Shown: positions 6,141 through 22,399, counted from the stretch's first letter. The stretch: 64,000 nucleotides of DNA from an uncultured Clostridia bacterium (GCA_947165945.1 CAMVCF010000002.1:1057-65056); one strand, 5' to 3'. The notes: generated by a model not told the origin, from the letters alone. Made by a program: numbers and translations.

Positions 6141-6794
6141 ATGAAAACAAAATTTTTTAAATTATTTTTAGTATTTTTATTTATTTTAGTAATATCACTA
6201 GTATTTATTATTATATTAAATAATAAAGTTATGCCACTTTATTTGTCTTATTCTGAGGGAAGAATGGAAAGTGTAGTTACAACAGTAATAAATAAAGCTG
6301 TTAGTGAATGTTATTTTGATGATGAATTATTTATTATGAAAAAAGATAGTAGTGGAACGATGATGGTTGATTATGATCCATTAGTTTTAAATAGAATTAT
6401 TTCTAATATATCAAGTAATGTATATGATAATATGAAAAAAATATTTGAATTAGATGAAAAAACTATAAATAAGTATAATCTTGATCCAAGTATTTTTTAT
6501 ATTCCGTCAGGTATAATTTTTAATTCGGTTTTATTAAATAATATTGGTCCAAAGATACCTGTTAAATTAGAACTTATTAGTAGTATTAATCCAAATATTG
6601 AAACAAAGGTAACTGAATATGGAATTAATAATTCTTTAATAGAAGTAAATATAAGAGTAAGTGTAATGGTAAAAATGATTTTACCAACTAGTAGTAAAGA
6701 TATAAGAGTAACAGTTATTGTTCCTTTAACTGTTAAAATAATACAGGGAAATATTCCTGAATACTATTTTGGATCATTCAAAAAAAGCAACTAA
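6141..6794 (+). CDS. yunB: Sporulation protein YunB-like
   Basis: 217 aa. An N-terminal TM is followed by the YunB-like pattern (..P.L..Y.E......V...INKAV.E ... N.I.S......). Confidence 0.55.
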   Translation: MKTKFFKLFLVFLFILVISLVFIIILNNKVMPLYLSYSEGRMESVVTTVINKAVSECYFDDELFIMKKDSSGTMMVDYDPLVLNRIISNISSNVYDNMKKIFELDEKTINKYNLDPSIFYIPSGIIFNSVLLNNIGPKIPVKLELISSINPNIETKVTEYGINNSLIEVNIRVSVMVKMILPTSSKDIRVTVIVPLTVKIIQGNIPEYYFGSFKKSN

Positions 6795-8077
6795 ATAATA
6801 TCAGTTGCATCTTCTTGACTAAGAGATGAAAGAAGACTTGTTTCTTCTTTAGGGGTATTCTCTAATGAATATTTTTCATCAAGTACTGTATCAATTGCTA
6901 CATTTTTATAAATTTCTTCAAATGTTGTAATTCCATCTAATACTTTTTGAAGTCCATCTTGAAGAAGAGTAGTTACATCACTTGTATAAACAAGTTCTCT
7001 AAGTTGTTCTCTTGGAATATTATTGTTATTAATTGCTTCTCTTATTTCATCATTTAAAAGTAGTACTTCTTGAATTGCAATTCGACCAAAATAGCCATTT
7101 CGACAATTATCACAATGTTTAGTTTCATCAACATCATTTATTTCTAAGATATCAAGTCCTAAATTTTCTTTAAATACAGCTTTTTCATAATCAGTTGTTG
7201 GTCTTACTTTGCGACAATTTTTGCAAAGTCTTCTTGCAAGTTTCTGAGATACTATTCCAGTTAAGGCACTTGATAAAAGGTATCTTTCAACATTCATATC
7301 TAAAAGTCTTTCAATAGTAGATAAAGAATTATTAGTATGAACAGTAGAAAAAACTAAGTGACCTGTTATAGATGCACGAACAGCAATTTGAGCTGTTTCA
7401 GAGTCACGTATTTCTCCTATTAGAATAATATTTGGATCTTGTCTTAAGATACTACGAAGAACTCTTCCAAATGTTAGACCAATTTCACTATTTACTTGAA
7501 CTTGATTTATTCCTTCAATATTCATTTCTATTGGATCTTCAACTGTTATAATATTAGTTTGTTCATTATTTAAATATTGAAGCATTGTATAGCATGTTGT
7601 ACTTTTACCTGTTCCAGTTGCACCTGTTATTAAAATAATTCCATTAGGAACTTCAATCATTCTTTTAATCTTTTTTAAATTTTTAGGTGTAAATCCTAAA
7701 GATTCAAGTCCATCACGGCTTTTTGAATAATCTAAAATACGAATAACAATTTTTTCTCCTAAATTAGTTGTAAGAGATGAAACACGCATATCAAGATCAA
7801 TTCCATTAATAGTATCTTTGATTGCTCCATCTTGAGGAAGACGAGATTCAGTTATATTCATATTAGAAATAAGTTTAAGTCTTGTTGTTAAGTTTTTTTG
7901 ATATTCTAAAGGAACCAGAGTATGATCTTGTAAAACACCATCAACTCTTATTCTTACTAATAATCCATTTTCATGAGGATCAAAATGAATATCACTTGCA
8001 CGACGACTAACAGCATAAATAATCATATTATTACATATATTGGATATTTCTTCATTTTTAAAATCATATTCTATCAT
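6791..8077 (-). CDS. GspE/PilB/ComGA-family secretion ATPase (short form, no N-terminal domains)
   Basis: 428 aa with Walker A GATGTGKST, Asp and His boxes (LRQDPNIILIGEIRD, TGHLVFSTVHTN) and the tetracysteine motif CKNC..CDNC. No pilin, platform or prepilin peptidase gene is adjacent. Confidence 0.85.
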   Translation of the reverse strand: MIEYDFKNEEISNICNNMIIYAVSRRASDIHFDPHENGLLVRIRVDGVLQDHTLVPLEYQKNLTTRLKLISNMNITESRLPQDGAIKDTINGIDLDMRVSSLTTNLGEKIVIRILDYSKSRDGLESLGFTPKNLKKIKRMIEVPNGIILITGATGTGKSTTCYTMLQYLNNEQTNIITVEDPIEMNIEGINQVQVNSEIGLTFGRVLRSILRQDPNIILIGEIRDSETAQIAVRASITGHLVFSTVHTNNSLSTIERLLDMNVERYLLSSALTGIVSQKLARRLCKNCRKVRPTTDYEKAVFKENLGLDILEINDVDETKHCDNCRNGYFGRIAIQEVLLLNDEIREAINNNNIPREQLRELVYTSDVTTLLQDGLQKVLDGITTFEEIYKNVAIDTVLDEKYSLENTPKEETSLLSSLSQEDATDII

Positions 8078-8179: not shown

Positions 8180-9400
8180 ATGGATAATGAATTAAAAAAA
8201 GCTTTACAAAAAGAAAAAAGAAGACAAAATCAAAATATTGAATTAATTGCATCAGAAAACTATACTTCAAAATATGTAAGAGAGTTACAAGGAAGTATTT
8301 TAACTAATAAGTATGCTGAAGGATATCCAAAGAAGAGATATTATGGTGGATGTGAATATATTGATATATTTGAAGAAAAAGCTATTGAATATGCTTGTAA
8401 GTTATTTGATGTAGAGTATGCTAATGTTCAACCTCATAGTGGATCAAGTGCTAATATGGCTGTATATCGTGCACTTTTAAATCCTAAAGATAAAGTTTTA
8501 GGGATGAATTTATCTGATGGAGGACATTTAACTCATGGATATAAACTTAATTTTAGTGGAATGGACTATGAAATTGTAAGTTATGGATTAAATAAAGATA
8601 CAGAAGTTCTTGATTATGATGAAATAGAAAAAATTGCTTTAAAGGAAAAACCAAAAATGATTATTGCTGGTGCTAGTGCATATCCGAGAAAAATTGATTT
8701 CAAAAGATTCAAAGAAATTGCAGATAAAGTTGGAGCATATTTAATGGTTGATATGGCTCATATTGCAGGACTTGTTGCTGCAGGACTTCATGAAAATCCT
8801 TGTAAATATGCAGATGTAGTTACTAGTACAACTCATAAAACTTTGAGAGGTCCAAGAGGAGGAATTATTTTAACAAATGATAGTGAAATTATTAAAAAAA
8901 TAAATAAAGTAATATTTCCTGGTATTCAAGGTGGCCCTTTAATGCATGTTATTGCTGGTAAAGCAGAATGTTTTTATGAAGCATTACAAGATGATTTTAA
9001 AAAATATCAAAAACAAGTTATCAAAAATATAAAAGCAATGGCTGATAGATTTCAAAAAAATGGAGTAAAACTTATATCTGGAGGAACTGATAATCATTTA
9101 ATTTTAGTAGATGTTTATAGTAGTTTTAATATTACTGGGTGTGATGCTGAGGCACTTCTTGATAAAGTTCATATTACAGTAAATAAAAATACTATTCCAA
9201 ATGAGACATTAAGTCCTATGAAAGCATCAGGTATTAGAATAGGATCTCCAGCTATGACAACAAGAGGGTTAGTTGAAAGTGATTTTGAACTTATTGCTGA
9301 TATTATCTCGAAAGTACTTACAAATCCTAATGATAAAAAAATCTTAAAGGAAGAAGCTAAAAAAGTACTTGAATTAACTAAAAAATATCCAATTAATTAA
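8180..9400 (+). CDS. glyA: Serine hydroxymethyltransferase
   Basis: 406 aa with [11 protein letters not shown], the PLP site [14 protein letters not shown], and RBS AAGGAG. Confidence 0.95.
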
Positions 9401-9404: not shown

Positions 9405-9434
9405 GCAAAGAGAGTAAAATTTCTTTGCTTTTTT
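9405..9434 (+). terminator. Rho-independent terminator after glyA
   Basis: Stem gcaaaga (9405-9411) pairs with tctttgc (9422-9428), followed by T6. Confidence 0.7.
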
Positions 9435-9530
9435 GTATTTAAAAAAAATATTTGACTCTCCCCTTAACTGGAGTGATAAAATGAAGTTGATGCAAGAAGT
9501 ATAATCCAAAACTTGATTTGTTTTACATTT

Positions 9531-9635
9531 TATATTTACTTTTAAAAAGAAAATAGATATAATAAGACGGTAAAAAAAGCAAATGGTATATTTACTTTAT
9601 TTTAAATATTTGATATACTTTACTATATAGTAGTG
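9531..9635 (+). repeat. Direct repeats TATATTTACTTT (x2 exact, plus one imperfect copy) and the palindrome TACTATATAGTA upstream of the T4SS operon
   Basis: Exact copies at 9531-9542 and 9587-9598, a variant atatactttac at 9613-9623, and the 12-bp perfect palindrome at 9621-9632. Confidence 0.4.
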
Positions 9636-9648
9636 TTTGGAGGTAACA

Positions 9649-11952
9649 ATGATAGGATTAATTAGAATGCTTAATGTAGTATCAATAATAAAAACTGCTC
9701 AAAACGTATTTAGAAGTTTATTTCTTTGGATAGATATAGCAATTTATTGGGTTGTTGAAAATATTTTTCAATTAATTATGGATTTAGCTCATTTTCAATT
9801 ATTTACAACAGGACAACTTAGAAGTTTTGCTAACCGTATTTATATTATTTTAGGACTTGTAATGATCTTTAAATTAATGATCTCATTCTTTCAAATATTT
9901 ATTAATCCAGATAACTTTGATAATAAAGAAAATGGAATTGGAAATATCTTAAAAAGAGTTGTTATAAGTTTAGTATTAATAGTTTTAGTTCCATCTATTT
10001 TTGATCTAGCAAGAAGAGCTCAAGATGAAATTGTTAAAGTAATACCTAAAGTAATACTAGCAGTTGATGCAGACATTTCTAATGATGATGAATTAGTACA
10101 AAGTACAGGAAGAACAATGGCTTGGTATTCTTTCTTACCATTTTTCTACTATAATAATGATGAATGTGCTGCATCAAGTGGATATAGATTATATGGTACT
10201 ATAGAACCACCTCCAGAAAATACCATTTATTATGTTGGACAACTAAATGCAGGAGATGCAACAGAAGCATGTAGTTTTTCATCAGATGGTTATGCATATC
10301 GATATAATTTTATTTGGGCAACAGTTGTTGGAGCATATTTAGTATATGTTTTAGTAACAATTGCTGTAAAAATAGCAATTCGTGCAATTAAATTTAGTTT
10401 ATGTGAAATTATTGCTCCAATTCCTATTTCTAGTTATATTGATCCAAAACAATCTAAACAATCTTTTGATAAATGGGTAAGTACATCAATTAAAGTTTAT
10501 TTAGATTTATTTATAAGAATAATGGTTGTTTACTTTGTTATTTATATTTTCCAAATGCTATTTGTTGGAAATAACGGAATGGGAAGTAAATTAAATGAAA
10601 CATTAGGTCAATATGATAATAACTGGGTAAGAGGCTTATTAGTAATTCTATTTATCATTGTAGGACTTCTTCAATTTGCAAAAGATATGCCTAAATTTGT
10701 TTCTGAATTAATTGGAGTACCAGATGGATTCAGTGATATTAAAGATATGTTTACAGGGGCTGGATGGAAAGCTCTTGGAGGTACAGCTGGAATGGCGGCC
10801 GCACCATTTACTACAGCAGTTGGTAATTATAGGTATGCTCGTAAAAATGGAGAAAACCGTGGAATTGCTTTAAAAAGAGCTTTAAATGGTGGTATTGCTT
10901 CTCTTGGGAGAGGGGCTGCAGCAATGGCAAATGGTAAAGGTTTTAATGATACCTTTTGGAATAATGTTGCTACAACAACTGGAAATTCACATAGACACAC
11001 TAATAAGAGGGCTATTAATAAATCATTAAAAAATAATAGAAGACGTGCTTTAGAGCATCAAGCATCTTTAATAAGTGATCTAGATGCAAAAGAAAGTAAC
11101 TTAGTAGCCACAAGAACAGGTATTGCAGATAGAATGGTGGAATTACGAAATAGAGATTCATATTTGCAAACAAGGTTAGCGAATGCTCGTATGTTTGGTA
11201 ATTCTGATGATATAGATGCAGCAGAAGAGGATATAAGACAAAATAATGCACAATTACAAAGTTTGTATAATTCATATGAAAATATAGAAGGAAAAATAAA
11301 CGAGATACAAGAACAAAGAAAGAGTGTTGAAAAGATGTACATTCCTAAACAGCCAACTCCAATAAAGGATTCTGTTATTAATTCTCTTAATCGTGCTCAA
11401 GGATTATCATCTGTGTCATCTCAAACACTTTTGGATGCTTCACAAAAATTATCTTCTATTCGAAGCGCATATTATACAGGCGAAGCAATGAAAAAGCTTA
11501 AAGAAGAGGGAACAAAACTTGACGATAAAAAATTTGATCTAGTTGATGGAAAAGGCAATATGATTTCTGCAACATACTCTGAAGTGGCTTCAGCATTAAA
11601 AACGTTAGATACAAAAGATAGTGTTACAATTGGTGGAAGAGTGTATACTAAGGATGACTATCAAGTTGTGCAACAATTGTTTTCTAATGCCGAAAAAGAT
11701 GCCGCACAGGAATATATTAGAAGAGTTGAGAGTGGAGATATTATAAATACGACAATTGAAGAAGGAATAAAACAAACAGAGGCGCTTCTTGCTGGATTAC
11801 AAATTGATAGAGTTACTATGAATGAGTTAAATGATTTATGGAAGAAAGATAAAGGTGCATTTTATAAGAAAATATCAGATATTTCAAAACGTCTAGAAAC
11901 TGAAGGTAATAATTTACAAGCATATGAACGTGCTAAAAAAGGTGATAGCTAA
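9649..11952 (+). CDS. VirB6/TrbL/PrgH/TcpH-like polytopic T4SS membrane protein with a long coiled-coil C-terminal domain
   Basis: Multiple TM helices fill the first ~430 aa, followed by a Q/N/E/K-rich coiled-coil tail. The start was moved from the track TTG at 9637 to the ATG at 9649 because RBS GGAGG at 9639-9643 fits it better. Confidence 0.6.
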   Translation: MIGLIRMLNVVSIIKTAQNVFRSLFLWIDIAIYWVVENIFQLIMDLAHFQLFTTGQLRSFANRIYIILGLVMIFKLMISFFQIFINPDNFDNKENGIGNILKRVVISLVLIVLVPSIFDLARRAQDEIVKVIPKVILAVDADISNDDELVQSTGRTMAWYSFLPFFYYNNDECAASSGYRLYGTIEPPPENTIYYVGQLNAGDATEACSFSSDGYAYRYNFIWATVVGAYLVYVLVTIAVKIAIRAIKFSLCEIIAPIPISSYIDPKQSKQSFDKWVSTSIKVYLDLFIRIMVVYFVIYIFQMLFVGNNGMGSKLNETLGQYDNNWVRGLLVILFIIVGLLQFAKDMPKFVSELIGVPDGFSDIKDMFTGAGWKALGGTAGMAAAPFTTAVGNYRYARKNGENRGIALKRALNGGIASLGRGAAAMANGKGFNDTFWNNVATTTGNSHRHTNKRAINKSLKNNRRRALEHQASLISDLDAKESNLVATRTGIADRMVELRNRDSYLQTRLANARMFGNSDDIDAAEEDIRQNNAQLQSLYNSYENIEGKINEIQEQRKSVEKMYIPKQPTPIKDSVINSLNRAQGLSSVSSQTLLDASQKLSSIRSAYYTGEAMKKLKEEGTKLDDKKFDLVDGKGNMISATYSEVASALKTLDTKDSVTIGGRVYTKDDYQVVQQLFSNAEKDAAQEYIRRVESGDIINTTIEEGIKQTEALLAGLQIDRVTMNELNDLWKKDKGAFYKKISDISKRLETEGNNLQAYERAKKGDS

Positions 11953-11977
11953 GATGAATATAAGGAGTGTGATATAG

Positions 11978-12307
11978 GTGCAAAACAATCAATATTTGAT
12001 ACCTGCAAATACAAAAAAGGGGAGTTTGATATTTGGAATTTTTCATAGGGTTGATCTTATTATTTTTGGAGTAGGAGTAGGAACAACGCTTTTGGCTTTG
12101 ATAATTGCTTCAACGTTTAATATTTTAGATAATTATTCATCTTTGTTAACGCTTGTTCCTGCACTTGTTGCAGTATTCTTGGTTTTTCCATTTCCAAATT
12201 ATCATAATATAAGAACTGCAATAGGAGAGCTTTTGGCTTTTTATACGAATAGACAAAAATATGTTTGGAGAGGTTGGTGTTCTAGTTATGAATTCAAAAA
12301 TAAATAA
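11978..12307 (+). CDS. PrgI/TcpE/VirB3-like small T4SS membrane protein
   Basis: 109 aa with two adjacent TM helices, positioned between the VirB6-like and VirB4 genes. GTG start with RBS AAGGAG. Confidence 0.5.
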   Translation: MQNNQYLIPANTKKGSLIFGIFHRVDLIIFGVGVGTTLLALIIASTFNILDNYSSLLTLVPALVAVFLVFPFPNYHNIRTAIGELLAFYTNRQKYVWRGWCSSYEFKNK

Positions 12308-12875
12308 TACACAAATAAAAAATAGTAATCAAAAAAATACTTCTAAATATACTGAAGATTGGATTGATGTAAAAGGAATTCAAAATGGAATGATTTTACT
12401 TTCGGGTAATGAAAAAGTTACAGGAGTAAAGATTTTTCCAAGAAATATCTTTATTCTTGATCCAGTTGGTCAAGAAGGAATATTAAATGCAATGCGAAAT
12501 TTTTATAATTTATTAAATTTTGAGTTTTGGATGATTGCAGCTGATAGACCTGTTGATATATCTGTATATCTTTCTCAACTTCAAATAATGCTTCAAAATG
12601 CTCAAACACCAGGACAGGCAAAGATAATTGCTCAAGATATTGATAAAGCAAATATGTTTGTTAATAACCAAGTAGTTGATACAGAGTATTACATTTTATT
12701 TAAAGAAAAGAGTCAAGATGAAATTGCTAGAAAAATTCGTTTATTGATCAATGGTCTTGGTAATGCTGGACTTAATGCTAGTCAAACGACAAATGATGAT
12801 TTAAGAACAATTCTTGATAATTTCTTAAATGGTGGGGTTAGAACTGATTTTGGAACGGTGGTGTTAAATAGATGA
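12288..12875 (+). CDS. T4SS protein resembling the N-terminal region of long-form Gram-positive VirB4 ATPases
   Basis: The pattern ..DWIDVKGIQNGMILLSGNEKVTGVKIFPRNIFILDP..QEGILNAMRNFYNLLNFEFWMI resembles the N-termini of VirB4/PrgJ/Orf16-type proteins. An ATGA overlap couples it to the ATPase ORF. ATG 12288 is preferred over 12261. Confidence 0.45.
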   Translation: MNSKINNTQIKNSNQKNTSKYTEDWIDVKGIQNGMILLSGNEKVTGVKIFPRNIFILDPVGQEGILNAMRNFYNLLNFEFWMIAADRPVDISVYLSQLQIMLQNAQTPGQAKIIAQDIDKANMFVNNQVVDTEYYILFKEKSQDEIARKIRLLINGLGNAGLNASQTTNDDLRTILDNFLNGGVRTDFGTVVLNR

Positions 12876-14659
12876 GTATTTTTAAAAGTGAAATAGCTCC
12901 TAAGGGATTACATTTTAATCCAAGTGATTTTAATATAAGTGATAAGTATGCAACTATTTTAACTGTTATTTCTTATCCAAGATTTATAACTCCTGGTTAT
13001 CTTGCAGATCTTACTAATATTGCAGGAATTAAAGTAGTTATTAAACATATTCCAGTTCCATTTTCAATGATTCAGAAAATGATCAATAAGCAAATTGCTG
13101 ATTATCGTCAACGTTATCAAGAAGAACGTGATAGAACAATGCAAGAGAGAATTCGTCAAGAATCAGAAACTTTAGAGTACTTTGTTCAAATGCTTGCTGC
13201 AAATCAATCAACAATCTTTGATTTTCAAATGCATATTATGATTACAGCAGATTCTAAAGAAGAATTAGAATTAAAGAAAGCAAATGTAAAAAATTATTTA
13301 GATTCTATGGAACTTCGTGCAGTTACTTTAAGATTTGAACAAGAAACTTTATTTAAATCAATGTTACCAATTTTTCCTAAACAAAAGATAGAAGAAAGAA
13401 TTGGAACGATTATTCCATCTGTTACAGTTGCTGGGATGTATCCTTATGTATTTGATAGTATTAAGGATCCAGGTCTTTCTAATTTAATTGGAGTAGATTT
13501 TTCTGGAGGAGTTATCTTATTTAATCAATTTTTATATAAAATGCGTAAAGAAACTAATCGAAATGATGCTAATATGATAATTCTTGGAAGTTCAGGGTCA
13601 GGTAAATCTACAGCAGCTAAATTACTTCTACGTGGTCATATTAGAAATGGATGTCAAATTGTTGCAATTGATCCAGAAAATGAACTAGAAGAAATGACAG
13701 CCCTTTTTGGTGGAGAAACAATTGATCTTGGAAAAGGTGGAAATTTTGGTATGATTAATCCGCTTGAAGTAATTTTAGATGTAGATGAAGAGGAAATTGC
13801 ATCAGGACTTGGTCATACAGTTTTAACAAGAACTTTACAGTTTTTAAAAGCTTTTATGAGATATTATTATCCAGATATTGAAGATGACGTGCAAACTTTA
13901 TTAAGTGAAATTGTACAAGATACATATAGAAGATTTGATATTAATTTTGATACTAATTTTATGAATAAAACTAGTAGGGATTTTCCAATATTTTCTGATG
14001 TTTATGAAACAATTAGAGGAAGACTTATTTCAATGACTGAAAAAACTCATGAACGTGATGTAATGGAACGTTTGGAACTTAAAATAAGACCTTTTGTTAG
14101 AGAATTAAGTTATTATTTTAATGGTCATACAACAATTAGACGTGATAGTAATTATATGGTATTTAATATTAAAGAATTAATGAATCAAGATACTAATATT
14201 AAAAATGCTTTATTCTTTAATATTCTAAAGTTTGCTTGGGGATTATGTTTAGATAAAAAACGTGATACTATTCTAATGGTTGATGAAGCCCATGTTCTTC
14301 TTGAGGGAAAAAATGTGCTTGGAGCTGATTTCCTTGCTCAAGTACAAAGACGTAGTCGAAAATATAATACAGGAACAATAATTATTACTCAACAACCAAC
14401 TGATTTTTCTGATCCTAGTGTTATAACTCAAGGAAGAGCTATTTTTGGTAATGCATCATATTATATGATCATGCAACTTAGAAAACAAGCAGTAGAAGAT
14501 TTAAGTCATTTAGTAGATTTAAATGAAAATGAAATAGAGAGTATAAAACGATATAATCAAGGACAAGCATTATTTGTATGTGGATCTAGAAGAATGCAAA
14601 TTGATATTGTTGTAACTCAAGATGAGTTAGATTCCTTTGGATCAGGTGGAGGATTATAA
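12872..14659 (+). CDS. VirB4/PrgJ/TraE-type T4SS ATPase
   Basis: 595 aa with Walker A GSSGSGKST, Walker B ILMVDEAH, and the conserved N-terminal IAP..L.F....F.I.DKY...L.V..YP pattern. Confidence 0.85.
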   Translation: MSIFKSEIAPKGLHFNPSDFNISDKYATILTVISYPRFITPGYLADLTNIAGIKVVIKHIPVPFSMIQKMINKQIADYRQRYQEERDRTMQERIRQESETLEYFVQMLAANQSTIFDFQMHIMITADSKEELELKKANVKNYLDSMELRAVTLRFEQETLFKSMLPIFPKQKIEERIGTIIPSVTVAGMYPYVFDSIKDPGLSNLIGVDFSGGVILFNQFLYKMRKETNRNDANMIILGSSGSGKSTAAKLLLRGHIRNGCQIVAIDPENELEEMTALFGGETIDLGKGGNFGMINPLEVILDVDEEEIASGLGHTVLTRTLQFLKAFMRYYYPDIEDDVQTLLSEIVQDTYRRFDINFDTNFMNKTSRDFPIFSDVYETIRGRLISMTEKTHERDVMERLELKIRPFVRELSYYFNGHTTIRRDSNYMVFNIKELMNQDTNIKNALFFNILKFAWGLCLDKKRDTILMVDEAHVLLEGKNVLGADFLAQVQRRSRKYNTGTIIITQQPTDFSDPSVITQGRAIFGNASYYMIMQLRKQAVEDLSHLVDLNENEIESIKRYNQGQALFVCGSRRMQIDIVVTQDELDSFGSGGGL

Positions 14660-14673
14660 AATAAGGAGTAAAG

Positions 14674-17241
14674 GTGGTGAGTCGTATGAATGAACAACAA
14701 AGAATTATAGAAGAGGAAAATCAAAGGCAGATTATCTCTGATATGAATCGAAATAATGAACAAATGCATAGTCAAATGAATCAACAAAATTATGCGACTC
14801 AACCTAATCATAATTTGTCATCAGGAAATGCACAAATGAATAGAAAGGTCCAAGAAAAAGAAGCTGTAAAAAAAGTTGGTGCGACAGCATCTCGTGCTGG
14901 ACTTGATTACGTAACTGGTGGTAAATATGAAAATTTAAGGAATAAACCAATTATAGGTGGAATGGCTAAAAAAGCAGAAAATAGAGTTGGAAATACACTT
15001 TCAAAGTTACCTGGCTCTAAAAAGTTAGGAGGTTTAGCCAAAAAAGCTGATGATGTTGGACTTGTAGATGGTGCAAATAAAGCTATGGATGCTGTTGGAG
15101 GAAAAAAGCTATCTCGAGATAATGTAAAAAGTGCCGTTCCTAGTGCACTTTTAAATAAGAATAAAAATAGGATGTTTCAAAATAAAAAAAGTATAGAAAG
15201 TGCCAAAGAAGAAACTGAAGATAAAAATTTAGATGAAACTGAAAGTAATGATGAAAATGTTGTTGAAAAAGCAGTTAAAATTAAAAAATTATTACCAATT
15301 TTATCTATAATAGCAGGATTTGTAGCTGTGGTATTTATTTTATTGATTCCTATTATAGTTATATTAAATATTATTCCATCTATTTCTAATTTTGGAAGTA
15401 TATTTAATAGTGCTGAAGCAGAAGATTATTATATTTATTCAGATGATGATCCAATGCATCAAAGTGAGGTTAATTATAATAATGCTATTGTTGGATCTAG
15501 TGATGGTAGTGTAAAGGGAATTATTCAAGAATATAAAGAAAAATATAATGTTTCTTTAGATCCGGCTTTATTAAATGCAATTATAGTTTATAGGTATATA
15601 ATTACTAATGAAGAAGGACTTTTTACAAGTCATGGAAGTGAAGATTTAATTGATTCTGAAAGTAGTGATGAAATTACTTCTACAAACTATACAGATGCTA
15701 AAAAAAAGATTGATACTGTTGCTAAGCTTATGTTAATAAATAAAGGCGGTTATTATACAACTGATAGTGAAATTGGTGGAGAAGTGTATAATAAATTAAT
15801 TAACGATCGTTTTTTGACAAGTTATTATAAAGATGTTTTAACTGGTACAGGATATGACGCAAGAAAAGAATTAGTAGATAATATTTTTGAATATGCAAGT
15901 AATGCTAAAGAAATATTTATAGATCAAGAAGATGTAACTGTAAATGGTGGAGTTGTATCAGATTATTCGCTTATTCATTTGCAAACATGTAAACAACCTT
16001 ATACTTATCAAACAGTAAATGGATTACAAATTTATAATAATCCAGCATGGAATGAAAACACAACTTATCCAGATTATTTGAATATTAAAGATTATTTAAA
16101 AGGGGTATTATATTCTGAAATTGGAATTTCAAGTGATTATAAAGAGGCAATGAAAGCTCAAGCAATTGCTGCTTTAACGTATTTAATTCATGACTCGCAT
16201 AGTGGATTTAATTTAAAAAGTGGTGAGATGTATTTTCCATCTGGTACATGTAGACAAGCAACTTGTTCTCCAACAGATGGTTGTACTTCAAAAGTTGAAG
16301 AAACATCAACCTCTCCAGTATTACATACTTTTTATGCTGGAACAGGAAGATTTACTGATTTAGATCCTAGTAAACATGAAGGAGAAAAAAGAGCTTTAAA
16401 TGAATCTGAAAATGAAGTTTTAGATGAAGTATTAAATGATATATTCGGAAAAATAATGGTTAAAAGTGGTATAACTAGTGCTAGTTTTTCTGGAAATAAA
16501 GATGTTATTTCTTCAAGTTATTTAGATAGCTGTAGTGCTGGTTCCTGTTTTTCTCAACAAGATGCAATAAAAGATGCAAGAAATGGAATGAATTATACAG
16601 ATATTTTAAAAAAATATTATTCAAATTATGATTTTGATATTATTGATATTAGAGAAGGACTTTATTATCAATCAACTGGACTTAATTATAATGGAACAAT
16701 TAATTTAAAAGAGGCTTTTCATTATCATCAAGGTGATGGTGAATGGGCTAGTGTTAATTTGTGTGATAGTGGGCCAATTCGTAGGAACGGATGTAATATA
16801 ACATCAGCTGCAATTGCTATTTCTTTGTTAACTAATCAAAGAATTACTCCTAAAGTTTTGAATGATCGGCAAAATGAAATTGCAACTTGTCTTGATTCAT
16901 CTCGTTATTTAATGATAATGGATTTTGCAAAATTATATGGATTAAATCCAGTAAGAATTGATAAATATAATACAAGTGAAGTAAGTGATATGCTTCAAAA
17001 ACTTGCAACTGGATCTTATGTTGCTGTTGCGCGTCTTGCAAGTAATAGTGGACGTTACTCAACTGGCTCTGGACACTATATTGCGTTAGTTGGTTCTAAA
17101 AATGAAAATGGTGTAGATAGGGTATTAGTATGGGATCCTGGTACTAGTAATTCCTCTCGAGATAATTATTGGGCAGATTTAAACGTTGATCTATTACCAC
17201 ATTTACAACCTAATTATTCATTTATATTAATAGGGAGATAA
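14674..17241 (+). CDS. T4SS-associated cell-wall hydrolase (VirB1 analogue, PrgK/CwlT/TcpG class) with a SpoIID-like domain and a C-terminal papain-like cysteine peptidase
   Basis: 855 aa. A Q/N/K-rich cytoplasmic N-terminus is followed by one TM. The SpoIID-like motif is YLKGVLYSEIG..YKEAMKAQAIAALTY. The C-terminal Cys/His pair is NGCNITSAAIAIS ... SGHYIALVG ... VWDPG. Confidence 0.7.
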   Translation: MVSRMNEQQRIIEEENQRQIISDMNRNNEQMHSQMNQQNYATQPNHNLSSGNAQMNRKVQEKEAVKKVGATASRAGLDYVTGGKYENLRNKPIIGGMAKKAENRVGNTLSKLPGSKKLGGLAKKADDVGLVDGANKAMDAVGGKKLSRDNVKSAVPSALLNKNKNRMFQNKKSIESAKEETEDKNLDETESNDENVVEKAVKIKKLLPILSIIAGFVAVVFILLIPIIVILNIIPSISNFGSIFNSAEAEDYYIYSDDDPMHQSEVNYNNAIVGSSDGSVKGIIQEYKEKYNVSLDPALLNAIIVYRYIITNEEGLFTSHGSEDLIDSESSDEITSTNYTDAKKKIDTVAKLMLINKGGYYTTDSEIGGEVYNKLINDRFLTSYYKDVLTGTGYDARKELVDNIFEYASNAKEIFIDQEDVTVNGGVVSDYSLIHLQTCKQPYTYQTVNGLQIYNNPAWNENTTYPDYLNIKDYLKGVLYSEIGISSDYKEAMKAQAIAALTYLIHDSHSGFNLKSGEMYFPSGTCRQATCSPTDGCTSKVEETSTSPVLHTFYAGTGRFTDLDPSKHEGEKRALNESENEVLDEVLNDIFGKIMVKSGITSASFSGNKDVISSSYLDSCSAGSCFSQQDAIKDARNGMNYTDILKKYYSNYDFDIIDIREGLYYQSTGLNYNGTINLKEAFHYHQGDGEWASVNLCDSGPIRRNGCNITSAAIAISLLTNQRITPKVLNDRQNEIATCLDSSRYLMIMDFAKLYGLNPVRIDKYNTSEVSDMLQKLATGSYVAVARLASNSGRYSTGSGHYIALVGSKNENGVDRVLVWDPGTSNSSRDNYWADLNVDLLPHLQPNYSFILIGR

Positions 17242-17243
17242 AT

Positions 17244-17954
17244 ATGAAAAAAATTATTGTTTTGCTTATTCCATTTCTATTAACAGGGTGTGCAAGTGTT
17301 ACTTATAATTTAGATATAGAAAAAAATTTAACTGTTACTGAAAAAGTAAATATAACAGGAACTAAAGATTATTTTGATGGGTATTATATGAATTTACCAA
17401 TTACAGTGGTAACTCAAAACTATGAATCAAAATTTATGGATCCTATAAAGAATAATAATTATCGTTATGAATTAAGAAAAAACAATATGCCATATCCTAG
17501 TGTCTTTGTTTCAAAGCATTATAATTCATTAAAAAATTATTCACAAGAGACAGTTTTTAAAGGCCAATCATTTGAAGATATTGTAATAGACGAGAATGAT
17601 AATTTAATTACAATTAAAACTTTAGGATTTTATCCATATGCACCGGATGATAGTGATGGAAGTTTAACTAGATTTCCAATAAGTGATTTATTAGTTCATA
17701 TAAAACTTCCTTTTATTGTTACTTCAAATAATGCTGATAGTGTAGATAAAAAAACTAATACATATACTTGGCTTATTACTAGTGAAACTAAAGAAAAAGA
17801 AATTAATATAACATTTGATAAAACAAGAATATATATATATAATTTAGCTATGTATATTTCAATTGGAATTATTTCTTTATTAGTTATTATTTTAATAATT
17901 TATTTACTTAAAATTAGAAGAAAAAATAAAGATAATAATAGAATAGGAGCTTGA
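17244..17954 (+). CDS. Lipoprotein with a C-terminal TM anchor (T4SS accessory or exclusion candidate)
   Basis: The signal peptide and lipobox are MKKIIVLLIPFLLTGC. A C-terminal hydrophobic helix is followed by RRKNK. Confidence 0.6.
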   Translation: MKKIIVLLIPFLLTGCASVTYNLDIEKNLTVTEKVNITGTKDYFDGYYMNLPITVVTQNYESKFMDPIKNNNYRYELRKNNMPYPSVFVSKHYNSLKNYSQETVFKGQSFEDIVIDENDNLITIKTLGFYPYAPDDSDGSLTRFPISDLLVHIKLPFIVTSNNADSVDKKTNTYTWLITSETKEKEINITFDKTRIYIYNLAMYISIGIISLLVIILIIYLLKIRRKNKDNNRIGA

Positions 17955-17955
17955 T

Positions 17956-20184
17956 ATGAATTTTAAATTTAAATTTGATGAAAAAGATGTAAAAAGATTT
18001 TTACTTGTTTGCATACTTCTTTTATATGTTGTTGCGATTGCTGTTTCTAATTTATCTAGTGTAACTTCAACTGGAAATTTTACTTGGTTTGATCCATTTC
18101 CTGCATTTTCCAAAGAATTATTTTCATCAACGATTTTATTTTATCTTATAACACTTTTATCTTTAATGATAAGTACTAAGAATAATATTTTTGACTTTTT
18201 TAAAAAAAGTGAAAAATTAGATGGATACAGTAAATGGTGCGATGCTAAAGATATGAAAGCAGAGCTTAAGATGATAAGACCAACTGATGCTAAAACTGAT
18301 GCAGCGGGAATTGCTCTTATTAATGATGGAAAAAAGATTTGGGTAGATAATGGTGATTATCATAATTTGATTATTGGATCAACTGGATCTGGAAAGACCC
18401 AAGATATTATATTTCCAATGATAGAAATTCTTGCTAAACATGGTGAATCAATGATTATAACTGATCCGAAGGGTGAGTTATATGAAAAGAAAAGCAATAT
18501 GTTAAGATCCAAAGGATATAATATAGTTGTTTTAAATTTTAGAGATCCAGGTCGAGGAAATGCTTGGAATCCAATGAGTTTACCATATAATTTATATAAA
18601 AGTGGTAATCGTGATAAAGCCATGGAACTTTTAGATGATCTAGCTTTAAATATTTTGTATGATGAAGGAAATAAAAATGCAGATCCATTCTGGGAAAAAA
18701 CAAGTGCTGATTATTTTTCAGGTCTTAGTTTAGGATTATTTGAAGATGCAAAAGAATCTGAAATTAACTTAAATAGTATTAGTTTAATGACAACTGTTGG
18801 AGAAGAAAAAATAGGTGGTAGTACTTATATAAAAGAGTATTTTAATTTAAAAGATCCAAGTAGTTCTGCATATATAAATGCATCAAGTACTATTCTTGCA
18901 CCAAGTGATACTAAGATGAGTATTCTGGCTGTTTTTAAACAAAAAATTAAATTATTTGCTTCTCGTGAAAATTTATCAGAAATGTTATCTTATAGTGATT
19001 TTGATATTTCCGAAATAGGTAAAAAGAAAACGGCTGTTTTTATTATAGTTCAAGATGAAAAGAAAACATATCATAGTTTGGTAACTATATTTATTAAGCA
19101 AGTTTATGAGACTTTAATTGATGTTGCTCAATCGTCCCCTCATAATAAACTTCCTATTAGAACAAATTTCTTGCTTGATGAGTTTGCTAATATGCCACCT
19201 CTTAAAGATGTAACAACCATGATTACAGCAGCTAGAAGTCGTGCAATGCGTTTTACTATGATTATTCAAAACTTTGCTCAGTTAAATGAAGTGTATGGAG
19301 AACAAAATGCTGAGACTATTAAAGGTAACTGTGGTAATACAATTTACTTGATATCAACTGAACTTAAAGCTTTAAAAGAAATAAGTGAAATGTGTGGAGA
19401 TGTTAAAGTTAAAACTGGTAAAAAAGATGCTGAAGGAAAAGATATAGAAGAAACAAGACCATTAATTACCGTAAGTGATTTACAGAAAATGAAAATGAAT
19501 GAAGTTATTGTAAGAAGAATTCGTCTTGCACCATTTAAAACTAAATTAACTCCTGAATATAAAATGGAATGGGAACATAAGTATAAAGAAACAAGTGTTA
19601 ATAATATTAAACAAAGAGATAGAAAAAATGTTGAAATGTTTGATGTTCGTGAATTTGTAAAAAAAGAAAAACAAGACTCAAATCCATTCGGAAGTATGCC
19701 AACATTTCCAGGAATGCCATTTGGAGGTGGAATGGATTCGCCTTTTTCTGGAATGTTTGATTCTAAACCAAGAAATGATGTTAATAGCAAAATAGATGTT
19801 GATAAGATTCTTGCAAACTTAGATGCAAAGATTGCAGAAATTGAAGCCGAAGAAAAGAAAATTGCCGAAGAAGAAAAAGAAGATGAAGAAAATACTCATG
19901 CAACTATTGAAAAAGAAAATAATACTGCTAGTGATAATATAGATCCTTCTACTCCAATTAAAGATGTAATTGATTCAATTGATGAAGATTTTAATCCTAT
20001 TTCAAAAGATAATGATTATAAAAAAGAAGATAATTTAGAAAATGTTGATTTACTTGTTGATAAAATAAAATCTGTAAACAAGGATTCTAAAGATTCTATA
20101 GTTAATAAGGTAAATGAAGTAGAAAATAATAAATATCGTGAAGTAAGTGATGATGAATTCTTTGATGATTTCTTTGATTCTTAG
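17956..20184 (+). CDS. VirD4/TraG/PcfC-type type IV coupling protein
   Basis: 742 aa with N-terminal TM helices, Walker A GSTGSGKTQ, Walker B FLLDEFANMP, and an acidic C-terminal tail ending DDEFFDDFFDS. Confidence 0.85.
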   Translation: MNFKFKFDEKDVKRFLLVCILLLYVVAIAVSNLSSVTSTGNFTWFDPFPAFSKELFSSTILFYLITLLSLMISTKNNIFDFFKKSEKLDGYSKWCDAKDMKAELKMIRPTDAKTDAAGIALINDGKKIWVDNGDYHNLIIGSTGSGKTQDIIFPMIEILAKHGESMIITDPKGELYEKKSNMLRSKGYNIVVLNFRDPGRGNAWNPMSLPYNLYKSGNRDKAMELLDDLALNILYDEGNKNADPFWEKTSADYFSGLSLGLFEDAKESEINLNSISLMTTVGEEKIGGSTYIKEYFNLKDPSSSAYINASSTILAPSDTKMSILAVFKQKIKLFASRENLSEMLSYSDFDISEIGKKKTAVFIIVQDEKKTYHSLVTIFIKQVYETLIDVAQSSPHNKLPIRTNFLLDEFANMPPLKDVTTMITAARSRAMRFTMIIQNFAQLNEVYGEQNAETIKGNCGNTIYLISTELKALKEISEMCGDVKVKTGKKDAEGKDIEETRPLITVSDLQKMKMNEVIVRRIRLAPFKTKLTPEYKMEWEHKYKETSVNNIKQRDRKNVEMFDVREFVKKEKQDSNPFGSMPTFPGMPFGGGMDSPFSGMFDSKPRNDVNSKIDVDKILANLDAKIAEIEAEEKKIAEEEKEDEENTHATIEKENNTASDNIDPSTPIKDVIDSIDEDFNPISKDNDYKKEDNLENVDLLVDKIKSVNKDSKDSIVNKVNEVENNKYREVSDDEFFDDFFDS

Positions 20185-20260
20185 AATTTGATTAAATTAA
20201 CTTGTTAAATAACTTGATTATTTGATAAGTTTTTTTTTATAATGTATTAGAGGAGATTTT

Positions 20261-22399
20261 ATGAATAAAGATATTATTGAATTATTAGAAATAAATTTAA
20301 AAATTAGTAAAAAGAAAATAGAAAGTGTAGTTAAATTATTAGAAGAAGGAAATACAATTCCTTTTATTGCAAGATATCGAAAAGAAGCAACTGGAGCACT
20401 GGATGAGAATGTTATAAGAAATATAGAGGAAATGTATCGTTATCAAGAAAATTTATATAATAAAAAAATGGATGTTATTAGATTAATTCAAGAAAAAGAT
20501 CTTTTAACAGATGATTTAAAAAAAGAAATTCTTGCTTGTACAAAATTAGTTGAAGTAGAAGATTTGTATTTACCATATAAAGAGAAAAAGAAAACAAAAG
20601 CAAGTGAAGCAATCAAAAATGGACTAACACCACTTGCTGATTTTATCATGATGCAAGAAGGTAATTTAGAAGTAGAAGCTAAAAAATACTTAAATGAAAA
20701 TGTTAAAACAATTGAAGATGCATTAAATGGTGCAAAATATATTATTGCTGAAAGAATTAGTGATAATGCAAAATATAGAAAATATATAAGAGAATCTATT
20801 AAAAATTATGGAAGTATAAAAACTAAAGTAAAAAAGTCTAATCCAGATACCAATAAAGTATATGAATTATATTATGATTATAATGAAAAAATAAAATATT
20901 TAAAACCCCATAAGATCATGGCAATCAATCGAGCCGAAAAAGAAAAAGTTATTACAGTATCAATTGATTTTGATAGAAAATTCATTGAATCATATTTAGA
21001 AAAAAATTTAATTAAAAATAAAGAGTCTTTAGCATACTCATTAATTATTGATAGTTTAAATGATGGTTTAGATAGGTTAATTCTTCCTAGTGTTGAAAGA
21101 GAAATTAGAAAAGAATTAACAGATAAGGCAAATATTAGTGCAATTGAAAATTTTAGTAAGAATTTAGAGCATCTTCTTCTAACTCCACCTATTAAAGATA
21201 AAGTAGTTCTTGCACTTGATCCAGGTTATAGAACCGGAACTAAAGTTGCAGTTGTTGACTCAGATGGAAACCTTTTAGATATTACAGTTATTTATCCAGC
21301 TCCACCTCATAATAAAATACTTGAAAGTGAAAAAATAATTCTTGATTTAATTGATAAGTATAAAGTTGATATAATTGCAATAGGAAACGGAACAGCATCA
21401 AGGGAAAATGAGGAATTTACTGCTAATTTAATAAAAAAAGCAAATAGGAAAGTTGAATATATTATTGTAAATGAAGCAGGAGCAAGTGTTTATTCAGCAA
21501 GCAAACTTGCATCAATAGAATTTCCTAATTTAACGGTTGAAAAAAGAAGTGCTATAAGCCTTGCCAGACGTCTTCAAGATTCTTTATCAGAACTTGTTAA
21601 AATTGATCCTAAAAGTATTGGAGTAGGTCTTTATCAACATGATGTTCCATCACGTGAATTATCTGAAAGTCTTCACTTTACTGTTTCGAAAATAGTAAAT
21701 CAAGTAGGAGTTAATTTGAATAATGCATCCACATCAATTCTTGAATATGTATCAGGTCTTAAGAAAAATGTTATTGAAAATATTATGAAATATAAAGAAT
21801 CAGTTGGTAGAATAAAATCTCGTGAAGAATTAAAAAATATTAAAGGCATGACGGATAAAATATATGAACAAAGTATAGGATTTTTAAGAATCATAGATGG
21901 AGTTAACCCTTTAGATAAAACAGATATTCATCCAGATAATTATCAAGATGCTTTAAAAATATTAGAATCTATTAATTTAAGTGTTGATGATTTAGGAAGT
22001 TACCGATTAAGAGAAAAATTAAAAGGTATTCCTAGAGATTTTTATAAAGAAATAGATATTGATAATTATACTTTTGAAGATATTTTATCATCCCTTGAAA
22101 AACCTAATCGTGATCCAAGAGATAATCTTGAAAAACCTATTTTAAGATCGGATATTTTAACAATTGATAATTTAAAAATTCATGATAAACTTCAAGGTGT
22201 TGTTCGTAATGTAATAGACTTTGGAGCATTTGTTGATATTGGTCTTCATAATGATGGACTAGTTCATATTTCAAAAATTAGTAAAAATTATATTAAACAT
22301 CCAAGTGAAGTTTTAAGTGTTGGAGATATTGTTGATGTTTATGTCATTGACATTAATAAAGAAAAAGAAAAAGTTTCTTTAAGTTTATTTTTAGAATAG
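20261..22399 (+). CDS. tex: Tex transcription accessory protein (S1 RNA-binding domain)
   Basis: 712 aa with the N-terminus ..LLEEGNTIPFIARYRKE, a YqgF-like region LALDPGYRTGTKVAVVD, and a C-terminal S1 domain. Confidence 0.9.
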   Translation: MNKDIIELLEINLKISKKKIESVVKLLEEGNTIPFIARYRKEATGALDENVIRNIEEMYRYQENLYNKKMDVIRLIQEKDLLTDDLKKEILACTKLVEVEDLYLPYKEKKKTKASEAIKNGLTPLADFIMMQEGNLEVEAKKYLNENVKTIEDALNGAKYIIAERISDNAKYRKYIRESIKNYGSIKTKVKKSNPDTNKVYELYYDYNEKIKYLKPHKIMAINRAEKEKVITVSIDFDRKFIESYLEKNLIKNKESLAYSLIIDSLNDGLDRLILPSVEREIRKELTDKANISAIENFSKNLEHLLLTPPIKDKVVLALDPGYRTGTKVAVVDSDGNLLDITVIYPAPPHNKILESEKIILDLIDKYKVDIIAIGNGTASRENEEFTANLIKKANRKVEYIIVNEAGASVYSASKLASIEFPNLTVEKRSAISLARRLQDSLSELVKIDPKSIGVGLYQHDVPSRELSESLHFTVSKIVNQVGVNLNNASTSILEYVSGLKKNVIENIMKYKESVGRIKSREELKNIKGMTDKIYEQSIGFLRIIDGVNPLDKTDIHPDNYQDALKILESINLSVDDLGSYRLREKLKGIPRDFYKEIDIDNYTFEDILSSLEKPNRDPRDNLEKPILRSDILTIDNLKIHDKLQGVVRNVIDFGAFVDIGLHNDGLVHISKISKNYIKHPSEVLSVGDIVDVYVIDINKEKEKVSLSLFLE

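Follow-up and report, generated by a model that had tools for sequence, protein, structure and literature searches.

Seven open reading frames (ORFs), all on the plus strand, occupy positions 9649-20184 of a 64,000-nucleotide stretch of DNA from an uncultured Clostridia bacterium (GCA_947165945.1, CAMVCF010000002.1:1057-65056; here called the window), between glyA (8180-9400) and tex (20261-22399). The block is an intact seven-gene Gram-positive type IV secretion system (T4SS) operon, and comparison with related genomes presents it not as a mobile island but as a chromosomal trait conserved in uncultured gut Bacilli, hundreds of species in all. With a G+C of 0.19-0.32, the window is strongly AT-rich; its genes follow the standard bacterial code (code 11). 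Within the block, intergenic gaps do not exceed 26 nucleotides (nt) and several ORFs overlap. An initial annotation of this DNA had described seven packed co-directional genes bordered by a glyA terminator and a tex promoter; the ORFs were found as described and both border signals could be located. The proposed products (VirB6-like, a VirB4 pair, a hydrolase, a lipoprotein and VirD4) also hold up in Pfam and NCBIfam searches, transmembrane (TM) prediction and fold comparison, and the putative VirB3-like product fits by position and topology. The promoter-like sites listed below are consensus matches, not enriched over shuffled sequences, and the promoters upstream of the first gene are thus a suggestion. 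Lengths are in amino acids (aa).

9405-9428, plus strand: intrinsic terminator of glyA with a 9-bp stem, a loop of 6 and a T-run; upstream boundary of the operon.
9535-9563 (TTTACT-17-TATAAT) and 9591-9619 (with a TG extension), plus strand: two sigma-70-like promoter candidates before the first gene, from a consensus scan.
9649-11952, plus strand: extended VirB6-like channel protein, 767 aa (NCBIfam, Pfam, TM prediction, AlphaFold2).
10846-11952, plus strand: hypervariable C-terminal domain of the VirB6-like protein, residues ~400-767 (pairwise identity, synonymous divergence, AlphaFold2).
11978-12307, plus strand: VirB3/PrgI-like membrane protein, 109 aa, two TM segments (position, size, topology, hhalign).
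12288-12875, plus strand: VirB4 N-domain protein, 195 aa from the ATG at 12288 (204 aa from 12261) (NCBIfam).
12872-14659, plus strand: VirB4 ATPase body, 595 aa (NCBIfam, Pfam, Walker motifs).
14674-17241, plus strand: VirB1-type wall hydrolase, 855 aa from the GTG at 14674 (851 aa from the ATG at 14686) (Pfam).
17244-17954, plus strand: lipoprotein with a C-terminal TM anchor, 236 aa (lipobox, AlphaFold2 and Foldseek).
17956-20184, plus strand: VirD4 coupling protein, 742 aa (NCBIfam, Pfam).
20158-20175, plus strand: C-terminal FFDDFF motif of VirD4, residues 735-740, invariant in the tails listed.
20214-20243, plus strand: promoter-like site of tex, TTGATT-18-TATAAT, from a consensus scan; downstream boundary of the operon.

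VirB4 is encoded in two pieces. The N-domain protein aligns with positions 92-276 of the NCBIfam model VirB4_plasma (NF045975; E 1.4e-13) and the ATPase with positions 296-891 of the same model (E 8e-105), as well as with CD1110 (1e-49) and the Pfam families AAA_10, P-loop_TraG and CagE_TrbE_VirB. The Walker A (GSSGSGKST) and Walker B (MVDEAH) motifs of the ATPase are intact. NF045975, the Mbov_0397 VirB4 equivalog, is the best-matching model, but the scores of 351.5 bits (ATPase) and 49.5 bits (N-domain) stay below its cut-off of 590 bits. In the window the two genes overlap by 4 nt (ATGA). The same division is found at all 85 of the 85 homologous loci holding both halves, with an identical 4-nt overlap at 81 of them, and the ATPase measures 595-599 aa in each locus whose contig does not end within it. 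A 227-aa ORF that precedes the DUF87 ATPase gene of plasmid pBMB68 is homologous to the N-domain protein (blastp, 8e-18). A frameshift lesion as the cause of the divided VirB4 was ruled out, since the two genes form a conserved pair that is present also in pBMB68. By the homology of the pBMB68 ORF, the two-gene VirB4, which works in a plasmid typed as conjugative, is ancestral to this subclass of T4SSs.

The VirD4 coupling protein has two TM segments, a nucleotide-binding domain with Walker A motif GSTGSGKT and a variable acidic tail. It scores 310 bits against NCBIfam conju_CD1115 (NF045973; cut-off 250) and matches T4SS-DNA_transf (PF02534; 7.5e-54), TraG-D_C and TrwB_AAD_bind in Pfam; an exact look-up of the protein returned no record. 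All 74 distinct tails listed (the window and 73 loci) end in (D/E)n-FFDDFF-(D/E)x. The portion of the tail preceding FFDDFF is hypervariable, FFDDFF itself is invariant, and the VirD4 of pBMB68 has no FFDDFF tail. Coupling-protein tails are docking sites in other systems, F TraD-TraM being one instance. Further instances (PMC12857230) are the tail of R388 TrwB, which docks the relaxosome accessory protein TrwA, and that of DotL, which docks the effector adaptor IcmSW. By analogy, FFDDFF is a probable docking site for a partner, and the invariance of this end implies that the partner, too, is conserved and is encoded elsewhere. At one locus (L012:18259-19587), a second coupling-protein gene, truncated and without TM segments, lies beside an AraC-type regulator just downstream of the operon; at another (L007:15134-17538), VirD4 is divided into two ORFs, which may reflect a frameshift or an assembly error.

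The first gene of the operon, whose start ATG at 9649 is preceded by GGAGG, encodes a protein with at least five predicted TM segments followed by ~420 hydrophilic residues, and with a Cys-containing loop. A polytopic N-terminal domain (residues ~1-360), within which residues 56-119 resemble a VirB2/T4SS_pilin-like hairpin (PF18895, E 3e-4), is followed by a hydrophilic helical domain. The protein matches the mycoplasma conjugal-transfer family MMCAP2_0566 in NCBIfam (E 6e-8); among its 39 homologues, sub-threshold matches were obtained to MMCAP2_0566 (18/39), pLS20_p028 (10/39, best 9e-14) and ICE_Mbov_0396_TM (10/39). The AlphaFold2 model (predicted local distance difference test score, pLDDT, 80.6) consists of helices throughout, among them a long coiled-coil hairpin. 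Its N-terminal part finds R388 TrwI/VirB6 as top Foldseek matches in the PDB (probability 0.85-0.90, with weak E values of 0.36-0.57), and the C-terminal domain is modelled as a coiled-coil hairpin plus a small alpha/beta module. Alignment of the family with the TrbL of pBMB68 by hhalign was not significant (probability 2.4%). The product of the second gene has no Pfam match. It is related by hhalign to a "PrgI family" protein of pBMB68 (E 6.8e-5, probability 63%), with which it has the motif NxYLIPxNxK in common, and by blastp to the equivalent ORF of plasmid CP074574 (3e-5); the VirB3/PrgI-like assignment of 11978-12307 is moderately supported by these alignments.

The hydrolase is predicted to comprise a cytoplasmic N-region, a single TM segment (residues 212-230) and extracellular SpoIID-like and papain-like C39_2 domains (Pfam SpoIID, 30.4 bits against a cut-off of 23; Peptidase_C39_2, 30.6 against 24). 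It also matches NCBIfam TIGR02669, and its activity as a VirB1-type peptidoglycan hydrolase is predicted from its domains. A role in a sporulation channel was weighed in view of the SpoIID-like domain and of yunB, sigma-factor and FtsW-family genes lying near in some species; this linkage proved inconsistent. The lipoprotein has the lipobox LLTGC, in which G15-C16 is invariant, and a C-terminal TM segment. Its AlphaFold2 model (pLDDT 87.5) returned Mycobacterium tuberculosis LppM (2nc8) as top Foldseek match (E 6e-7, probability 1.0, TMt 0.63) and no match to VirB8/NTF2, TcpC, TraM or PrgL. LppM likewise bears a C-terminal TM anchor. The initial annotation had compared the gene order to prgH-I-J-K-L/pcfC. 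That order is confirmed, but the place of L as a PrgL/VirB8-like protein is not, since the modelled fold of the lipoprotein is LppM-like and not VirB8; no VirB8-like (NTF2-fold) subunit was recognized, the lipoprotein being the only candidate for one. Searches of the VirB6-like protein, hydrolase and lipoprotein against PDB sequences, with single sequences and with profiles, gave nothing useful except SpoIID. In a distant clade (loci L024-L085, VirB4 72-75% identical), the slot between hydrolase and VirD4 is held by unrelated small anchored proteins, either a single ~260-aa protein or two of ~170 aa, and in L058, L062 and L080 several such proteins coexist there. By the presence of a VirB4-family ATPase, a VirD4 coupling protein, a polytopic VirB6-like channel protein and a VirB1-type peptidoglycan hydrolase, the predicted products fit a T4SS of the MPF-FATA type (MPF, mating-pair formation) in most respects.

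Features of an integrative and conjugative element (ICE), namely a relaxase, an integrase, recombinase or DDE transposase, and att repeats, are missing from the block. Pfam and NCBIfam scans of its ORFs for relaxase, recombinase, transposase, Rep and Par domains were negative, which bears out the initial annotation on the lack of relaxase, integrase, recombinase, replication and partition genes and answers, for these ORFs, the profile check that it had proposed for relaxases and recombinases. The C-terminal half of 9649-11952, named there as a place where a relaxase might be hidden, contains none by Pfam and NCBIfam, by profile search against the PDB or by AlphaFold2 and Foldseek, which found no HUH-type fold; the profile of 39 VirB6-like sequences drew only coiled-coil noise from the PDB. 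No relaxase, integrase, recombinase or DDE transposase was found among the 20 window genes outside the block that were scanned with Pfam (~29 further window genes were identified by reading translations alone), nor a relaxase or recombinase among conserved or sampled genes within 10 kb of the 85 homologous loci. The MobP3 relaxase of pBMB68 had no tblastn match in the window or the 85 loci (best E 0.7). A search for att-like direct repeats or terminal inverted repeats flanking the block yielded only short AT-rich chance matches. Scans of the window for tRNA and Rfam features returned nothing, so that neither an integration site of the tRNA type nor a known regulatory RNA is present.

Database homologues of the VirB4 ATPase number more than 7000, of which the top 120 (587-595 aa, 87-100% identity) come from gut metagenomes and metagenome-assembled genomes (MAGs). 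A scan of GTDB, with one genome per species, identified 464 stretches in species-representative genomes that encode a VirB4 relative. The carriers are uncultured and all are MAGs; the best 80 of the 464, which were fetched, derive from human (Hadza), roe deer, sheep, goat, rabbit, chicken and mouse guts and bear record names such as Bacilli bacterium, uncultured Tenericutes, Mycoplasma sp., Erysipelotrichaceae and Candidatus Onthousia, the last of which we take to belong to order RFN20. A search of the literature on the Onthousia, RFN20 and RF39 lineage in connection with T4SSs found no description of such a system. Every complete locus among the 80 has the gene order VirB6-like, VirB3-like, VirB4-N, VirB4-C, hydrolase, small anchored protein, VirD4. 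The flanks are core genes that differ by species: the operon may be preceded by glyA plus extra genes and followed by tig, by a Mur-family ligase gene or by an RNase R gene; it may have rpsB-tsf before it and a NUDIX gene after it; or sepF and a sigma-factor gene before it and an FtsW-family gene after it. In the closest species-level relatives glyA lies upstream in four out of four, the downstream neighbour is different in each, and tex follows the operon in no sampled relative. With glyA constant and the downstream neighbour changing, the variation looks like local rearrangement and not like hopping of the block.

Compared in the same genome pairs, the ratio of nonsynonymous to synonymous divergence (dN/dS) is 0.02-0.11 for the VirB4 ATPase, 0.04-0.18 for VirB4-N, 0.06-0.31 for the VirB3-like protein and 0.09-0.20 for VirD4, as against 0.13-0.17 for glyA; the VirB4 ATPases are 90-93% identical and the GlyA sequences 85-87%. 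VirB4 identity tracks that of the neighbouring rmuC (r = 0.75) and is the higher of the two (87% vs 78%). G+C content at third codon positions (GC3) is 0.125 for the seven genes and 0.113±0.028 for the rest of the window. The raised overall G+C of the block (0.28-0.32) had been considered as a sign of foreign DNA; this was ruled out, as GC3 equals that of the host and the excess resides in codon positions 1 and 2, as it does in glyA, tgt and pilB. Neither the patchy distribution nor the foreign composition of an ICE was seen, judging from the 464 genomes, the co-divergence and GC3, genomes of the lineage lacking the block not having been searched for. To speak of an island wedged between glyA and tex is thus misleading, the block being lineage-wide and only its flanks differing by species. 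The comparison of relatives that the initial annotation had called for revealed conserved order and low dN/dS, and this conservation under purifying selection supports the domesticated T4SS that it had listed among its options. Because the block is conserved under strong selection without a nearby relaxase, the hosts themselves appear to use the conjugation-type machine. As regards the window as a whole, codon bias is extreme, with a mean GC3 of ~0.11 over all genes, GC skew is consistently positive along the 64 kb and nearly all genes lie on the plus strand.

Three segments of the operon behave differently. Alleles were compared in four genome pairs, the main pair being ~97% identical across the locus and its flanks. 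In such ~97%-identical genomes the C-terminal domain of the VirB6-like protein retains only 7-25% aa identity, and its synonymous divergence (dS) is 0.97 as against 0.14-0.25 in neighbours. Close genomes also differ in the VirD4 tail and in the hydrolase at residues ~100-300, the catalytic part of the latter being conserved. The hypervariable pattern was seen in three of the four pairs; for the VirB6-like protein of the window itself, the nearest database homologue is 52% identical over the whole protein. Since the divergent domains occur in genomes that are otherwise ~97% identical, the comparisons indicate domain-specific allele replacement by recombination together with diversifying selection, and the mosaic alleles show that divergent DNA is imported and recombined in carrier populations. 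From TM prediction and our own reading of the topology, the VirB6-like C-terminal domain and the hydrolase N-region would be cytoplasmic. "Extended VirB6" domains elsewhere are thought to be exposed, and the variable regions of TraG in F and SXT/R391 have a role in exclusion or partner specificity.

A search of the VirB4 ATPase against 72,556 plasmids found relatives at most 30% identical, the best being the Mycoplasmatota plasmid CP074574 and Bacillus thuringiensis conjugative plasmids such as pBMB68 (NZ_CP010581). The genes of pBMB68 run MobP3 relaxase, VirD4 (CD1115), small ORF, TrbL/VirB6, PrgI/VirB3, the 227-aa ORF, DUF87 VirB4 (632 aa), NlpC/P60 hydrolase, and blastp aligns the DUF87 protein with the ATPase at 6e-90 and the two VirD4 proteins at 8e-76. 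The operon resembles pBMB68 in its CD1115-family VirD4 and in the order VirB6, VirB3 (putative in the operon), VirB4-N, ~600-aa VirB4, hydrolase. It differs in that identities are 28-35%, the MobP3 gene of the plasmid lies beside a VirD4 gene placed at the start of the module and not at its end, the plasmid hydrolase is NlpC/P60 and not SpoIID plus C39_2, and the plasmid VirB6 has 285 aa and no hypervariable C-terminal domain. Thus, the operon has the VirB4 N-domain, the ~600-aa ATPase and the CD1115-family VirD4 of a pBMB68-type subclass but neither its adjacent MobP3 relaxase nor its plasmid location. A CpaB-like SAF-domain gene begins further downstream in pBMB68, at the end of the stretch examined, and in CP074574 the T4SS is followed by a CpaB/CpaF/TadB-C-like pilus set. 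Most loci of the distant clade (e.g. L056:1-6955 and L026:81-7052) have a Tad-like pilus operon directly upstream of the T4SS, with RcpC/CpaB and a T2SSE ATPase by Pfam and TadB/C-, TadE- and ParA/TadZ-like proteins by reading. Between this operon and the T4SS lie genes for two VirB2-like two-TM proteins (weak PF18895), one fused to a variable Cys-rich extracellular domain; downstream of the T4SS come genes for a rhodanese, DedA, RmuC and a class-I (Trp/Tyr-type) tRNA synthetase. No Tad-like operon stands beside the T4SS in the clade of the window.

The hosts of the mycoplasma ICEs (MICE) are wall-less and use genetic code 4, unlike those of the operon, which are walled and apparently spore-forming and use code 11. 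The MICE module consists of CDS5 (VirD4), CDS17 (VirB4), CDS16 (VirB6-like) and CDS13/15 (VirB3-like), and the NCBIfam models that score best, Mbov_0397 for VirB4 and MMCAP2_0566 and Mbov_0396 for the VirB6-like protein, belong to MICE families; pLS20_p028 and the Clostridioides difficile models CD1110 and CD1115 likewise point to conjugative ancestry. MICE have no clearly identified relaxase, and their chromosomal transfer is not tied to an oriT (PMC6030558, PMC12857230). As mobile elements they encode a DDE transposase, and their module has no VirB1- or VirB8-like parts (PMC12857230). The operon, in contrast, has a wall hydrolase and a split VirB4, and no DDE (CDS22) transposase is linked to it. 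Similar in layout is the Prg/Pcf system of the Enterococcus plasmid pCF10, the model of MPF-FATA. Both have the order VirB6, VirB3 (putative in the operon), VirB4, VirB1-type hydrolase, small anchored protein, VirD4 (PMC12857230), and hydrolases of both types have a cytoplasmic N-region and one TM segment. The operon departs from pCF10 in its LppM-like protein at the prgL position, in its split VirB4 and in the lack of adhesin, relaxase and regulatory genes.

The initial annotation had also invoked the VirB1/B4/B6/D4 sets of streptococci. As to the parts this likeness stands: the type IVC system of the Streptococcus suis 89K island is a chromosomal minimal VirB1, VirB4, VirB6, VirD4 set (PMC3464263), and the operon has the same four, clustered and co-directional. 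As to the genomic-island setting it does not, type IVC sets residing in islands with abnormal GC and transposon factors and being found in 14 of 50 Streptococcus strains (~28%) (PMC3464263). The operon, on the other hand, is lineage-wide, has host-like GC3 and is accompanied by no mobility genes. The rvh T4SS of Rickettsia is not known to have a relaxase and has extended, divergent VirB6 proteins. It is of the Gram-negative VirB/D type, with an outer-membrane core, duplicated components and obligate intracellular hosts, and its sequence relationship to the operon is limited to VirB4 and VirD4; like the operon, it is a fixture of its lineage, kept across all thirteen Rickettsia genomes analysed and not carried by a mobile element (PMC2653234). 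By its coupling protein without a neighbouring relaxase, the operon also belongs with the "MOBless" T4SSs of Guglielmini et al. 2014 (PMC4027160). It lacks the defining features of ICEs and falls outside both the mycoplasma ICE equivalog families and the type IVC islands. As a machine it is of a familiar sort, but it combines features not usually found together: chromosomal fixation throughout a Gram-positive gut clade, a SpoIID-type hydrolase, an LppM-like lipoprotein, a hypervariable extended VirB6 and an invariant VirD4 tail.

The assembly of parts is complete, intact and under selection, and no DNA-processing enzyme is encoded in cis; from it we infer contact-dependent translocation of a VirD4-recruited substrate. 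Tentatively, and with confidence somewhat short of even, we favour a functional, vertically inherited and chromosomally fixed T4SS derived from a pBMB68/mycoplasma-ICE-type module, whose substrate would be DNA that cells of the lineage pass to one another by contact. In the simplest history, a conjugation module consisting of the T4SS, with or without a Tad operon, was captured by an ancestral member of the lineage and lost its linked relaxase and recombinase, inheritance having been vertical since. By homology, the SpoIID/C39-like hydrolase would open the wall, the extended VirB6-like and VirB3-like proteins would form the membrane channel, the two-piece VirB4 would energize it, and VirD4 would recruit the substrate, probably through a partner binding FFDDFF, and feed it to the channel. 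The DNA transferred might be chromosomal or consist of mobilizable elements bringing their own relaxase; it might be processed by a relaxase encoded elsewhere or by a relaxase-independent route such as that proposed for mycoplasma chromosomal transfer. The hypervariable C-terminal domain of VirB6 could act as a determinant of partner specificity or exclusion. DNA is favoured as substrate because every characterized relative of the subclass (mycoplasma ICE, pLS20, pBMB68 and Clostridioides difficile elements) transfers DNA; because the best family models are those of mycoplasma ICEs, which move chromosomal DNA without an identified relaxase or oriT; because carrier populations import and recombine divergent alleles; and because the hypervariable VirB6 domain resembles an exclusion or partner-specificity determinant. 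Chromosomal transfer unlinked to a relaxase has been described for the related mycoplasma ICE system (PMC12857230).

A bolder version of DNA transfer, which we consider unlikely, would make the operon a host-owned core conjugation machine of an order-level lineage of uncultured gut Bacilli (called "Tenericutes" or "Mycoplasma" in some records), serving relaxase-independent distributive chromosomal exchange. The mycoplasma ICE T4SS would then have in the operon its chromosomal equivalent in walled cells, and possibly its evolutionary source; the VirB6 C-terminal domain would be a mating-type or exclusion determinant, and FFDDFF would dock a DNA-processing partner.

Several points weigh against DNA as the substrate. 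Neither a relaxase nor an oriT was found in the block, in the scanned genes of the window or in the conserved or sampled genes within 10 kb of the 85 loci. The mosaic alleles could equally be attributed to transformation or phage. Moreover, T4SSs with a coupling protein but no relaxase are, as an operational rule, usually read as protein secretion systems (PMC4027160), and protein secretion is the main rival to DNA transfer. The machine would then be a dedicated translocator of effectors or toxins into neighbouring bacteria or host cells, with VirD4 reading the effectors or an adaptor through FFDDFF and the variable domains reflecting an arms race. We regard this as somewhat unlikely. Retention of a coupling protein with no relaxase near the locus in 85 species is the "MOBless" signature of protein-secreting systems (PMC4027160), and lineage-wide fixation recalls the conserved T4SS of Rickettsia (PMC2653234). 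A hypervariable K/E-rich protein of 500-750 aa, encoded upstream of the operon in the clade of the window, could be a substrate. However, this protein is absent from the window, which has no candidate substrate gene between glyA and tex; no effector/immunity-like gene pair is conserved beside the operon, and the characterized relatives of the subclass are, every one, DNA-transfer systems. The K/E-rich protein contains repeats, and its gene precedes the VirB6-like gene, in most loci as the immediate neighbour (L001:4934-6643, L009:4093-5793, L015:4863-6671, L012:5144-6637 and L007:3640-5355). Its N-terminal region bears a conserved motif, …IFKxVGE…LNYxxY…, and many copies have two TM segments near the centre; Pfam gives no match, and the protein may be a substrate or an accessory factor.

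Alternatively, as the initial annotation had also proposed, the operon could be a chromosomal helper acting in trans and exploited mainly by mobilizable elements (integrative mobilizable elements, small plasmids) that have a relaxase and oriT of their own. A full mating-pair-formation set with a coupling protein and no cognate relaxase would suit such a role, and the second, truncated coupling-protein gene downstream of one operon (L012) hints at traffic of elements. We find it quite improbable, as benefit to parasitic elements alone leaves unexplained a selection stronger than that on glyA and a presence in 464 genomes, and the flanking genes examined include no element with a relaxase. A competence-like machine for DNA uptake, comparable to the Helicobacter ComB T4SS and possibly joined to the Tad-like pilus of the distant clade, would need no relaxase, and most loci of the 72-75% clade speak for it, since the pilus operon immediately precedes the T4SS there. 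In mycoplasma chromosomal transfer, too, DNA flows into the ICE-carrying partner. Yet VirD4 is among the most conserved genes here and has a conserved docking tail, while uptake systems such as ComB are not known to have a VirD4 coupling protein; the clade of the window also lacks an adjacent Tad operon, and uptake appears very unlikely. Finally, a decaying ICE remnant, stripped of relaxase and integrase and heading for loss, an option of the initial annotation that would account for the missing relaxase, integrase, oriT and replication and partition genes and for the VirB4 frame divided in two, is practically excluded, and with it the term island, by distribution (relatives in 464 species-level genomes), selection (core-gene dN/dS 0.02-0.2, that of VirB4 at the low end), composition (no anomaly) and core-gene flanks (no att repeats), all genes and catalytic motifs being intact and the VirB4 split being conserved at 85/85 loci and shared with a functional family of conjugative plasmids.

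Nearly all known Gram-positive T4SSs travel as cargo on plasmids or ICEs. Were a complete T4SS to be a fixed part of the chromosome, diverging in step with its hosts in hundreds of gut species and conserved above glyA, it would be a clear case of host takeover of a conjugation machine. With its hundreds of natural variants, invariant coupling-protein tail and hypervariable channel domains, the operon offers a comparative system for asking what a relaxase-less Gram-positive T4SS transports, and it bears on how chromosomal transfer of the mycoplasma type, independent of a relaxase, might work and where it arose. Carriers are common in the guts of humans, ruminants, rabbits, chickens and mice, where the system may shape gene flow or community interactions.

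The surroundings of the operon in the window are housekeeping genes. Upstream are tgt, tsaC/sua5, recX, yunB and an orphan PilB-type ATPase gene; downstream, two ORFs for an AddA-like helicase-nuclease are followed by an extensive cluster for polysaccharide biosynthesis and by a C39-ABC exporter gene. An ORF cut by the start of the window (3-704) is 36% identical over 213 aa (weak DUF6273) to a TM-anchored extracellular protein of the distant clade, the gene for which directly follows VirD4 in most loci of that clade; the window copy lies ~9 kb upstream of the operon. The orphan PilB/GspE-type ATPase gene (6791-8077, minus strand; T2SSE, 392 bits) converges with a YunB-like sporulation gene (6141-6794) with a 4-nt overlap, and genes for a pilin, PilC or a prepilin peptidase are missing from its neighbourhood; L006, the only relative whose locus extends that far, has the same pilB-glyA arrangement. 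The two AddA-like ORFs (22411-24471 and 24531-25601) are 60 nt apart and represent a split gene or a lesion, the first encoding the UvrD N-terminal part and the second UvrD_C and a PD-(D/E)XK nuclease domain. Positions 31040-54562 and 58863-60911 hold a surface-polysaccharide cluster and, further on, the exporter, an ABC transporter with a C39 peptidase of the bacteriocin-export type. Pfam, run on part of the cluster, identified glycosyltransferases, a polysaccharide deacetylase, LytR-CpsA-Psr and a sulfatase-family protein, and a MurJ-like flippase and nucleotide-sugar epimerases were recognized by reading.

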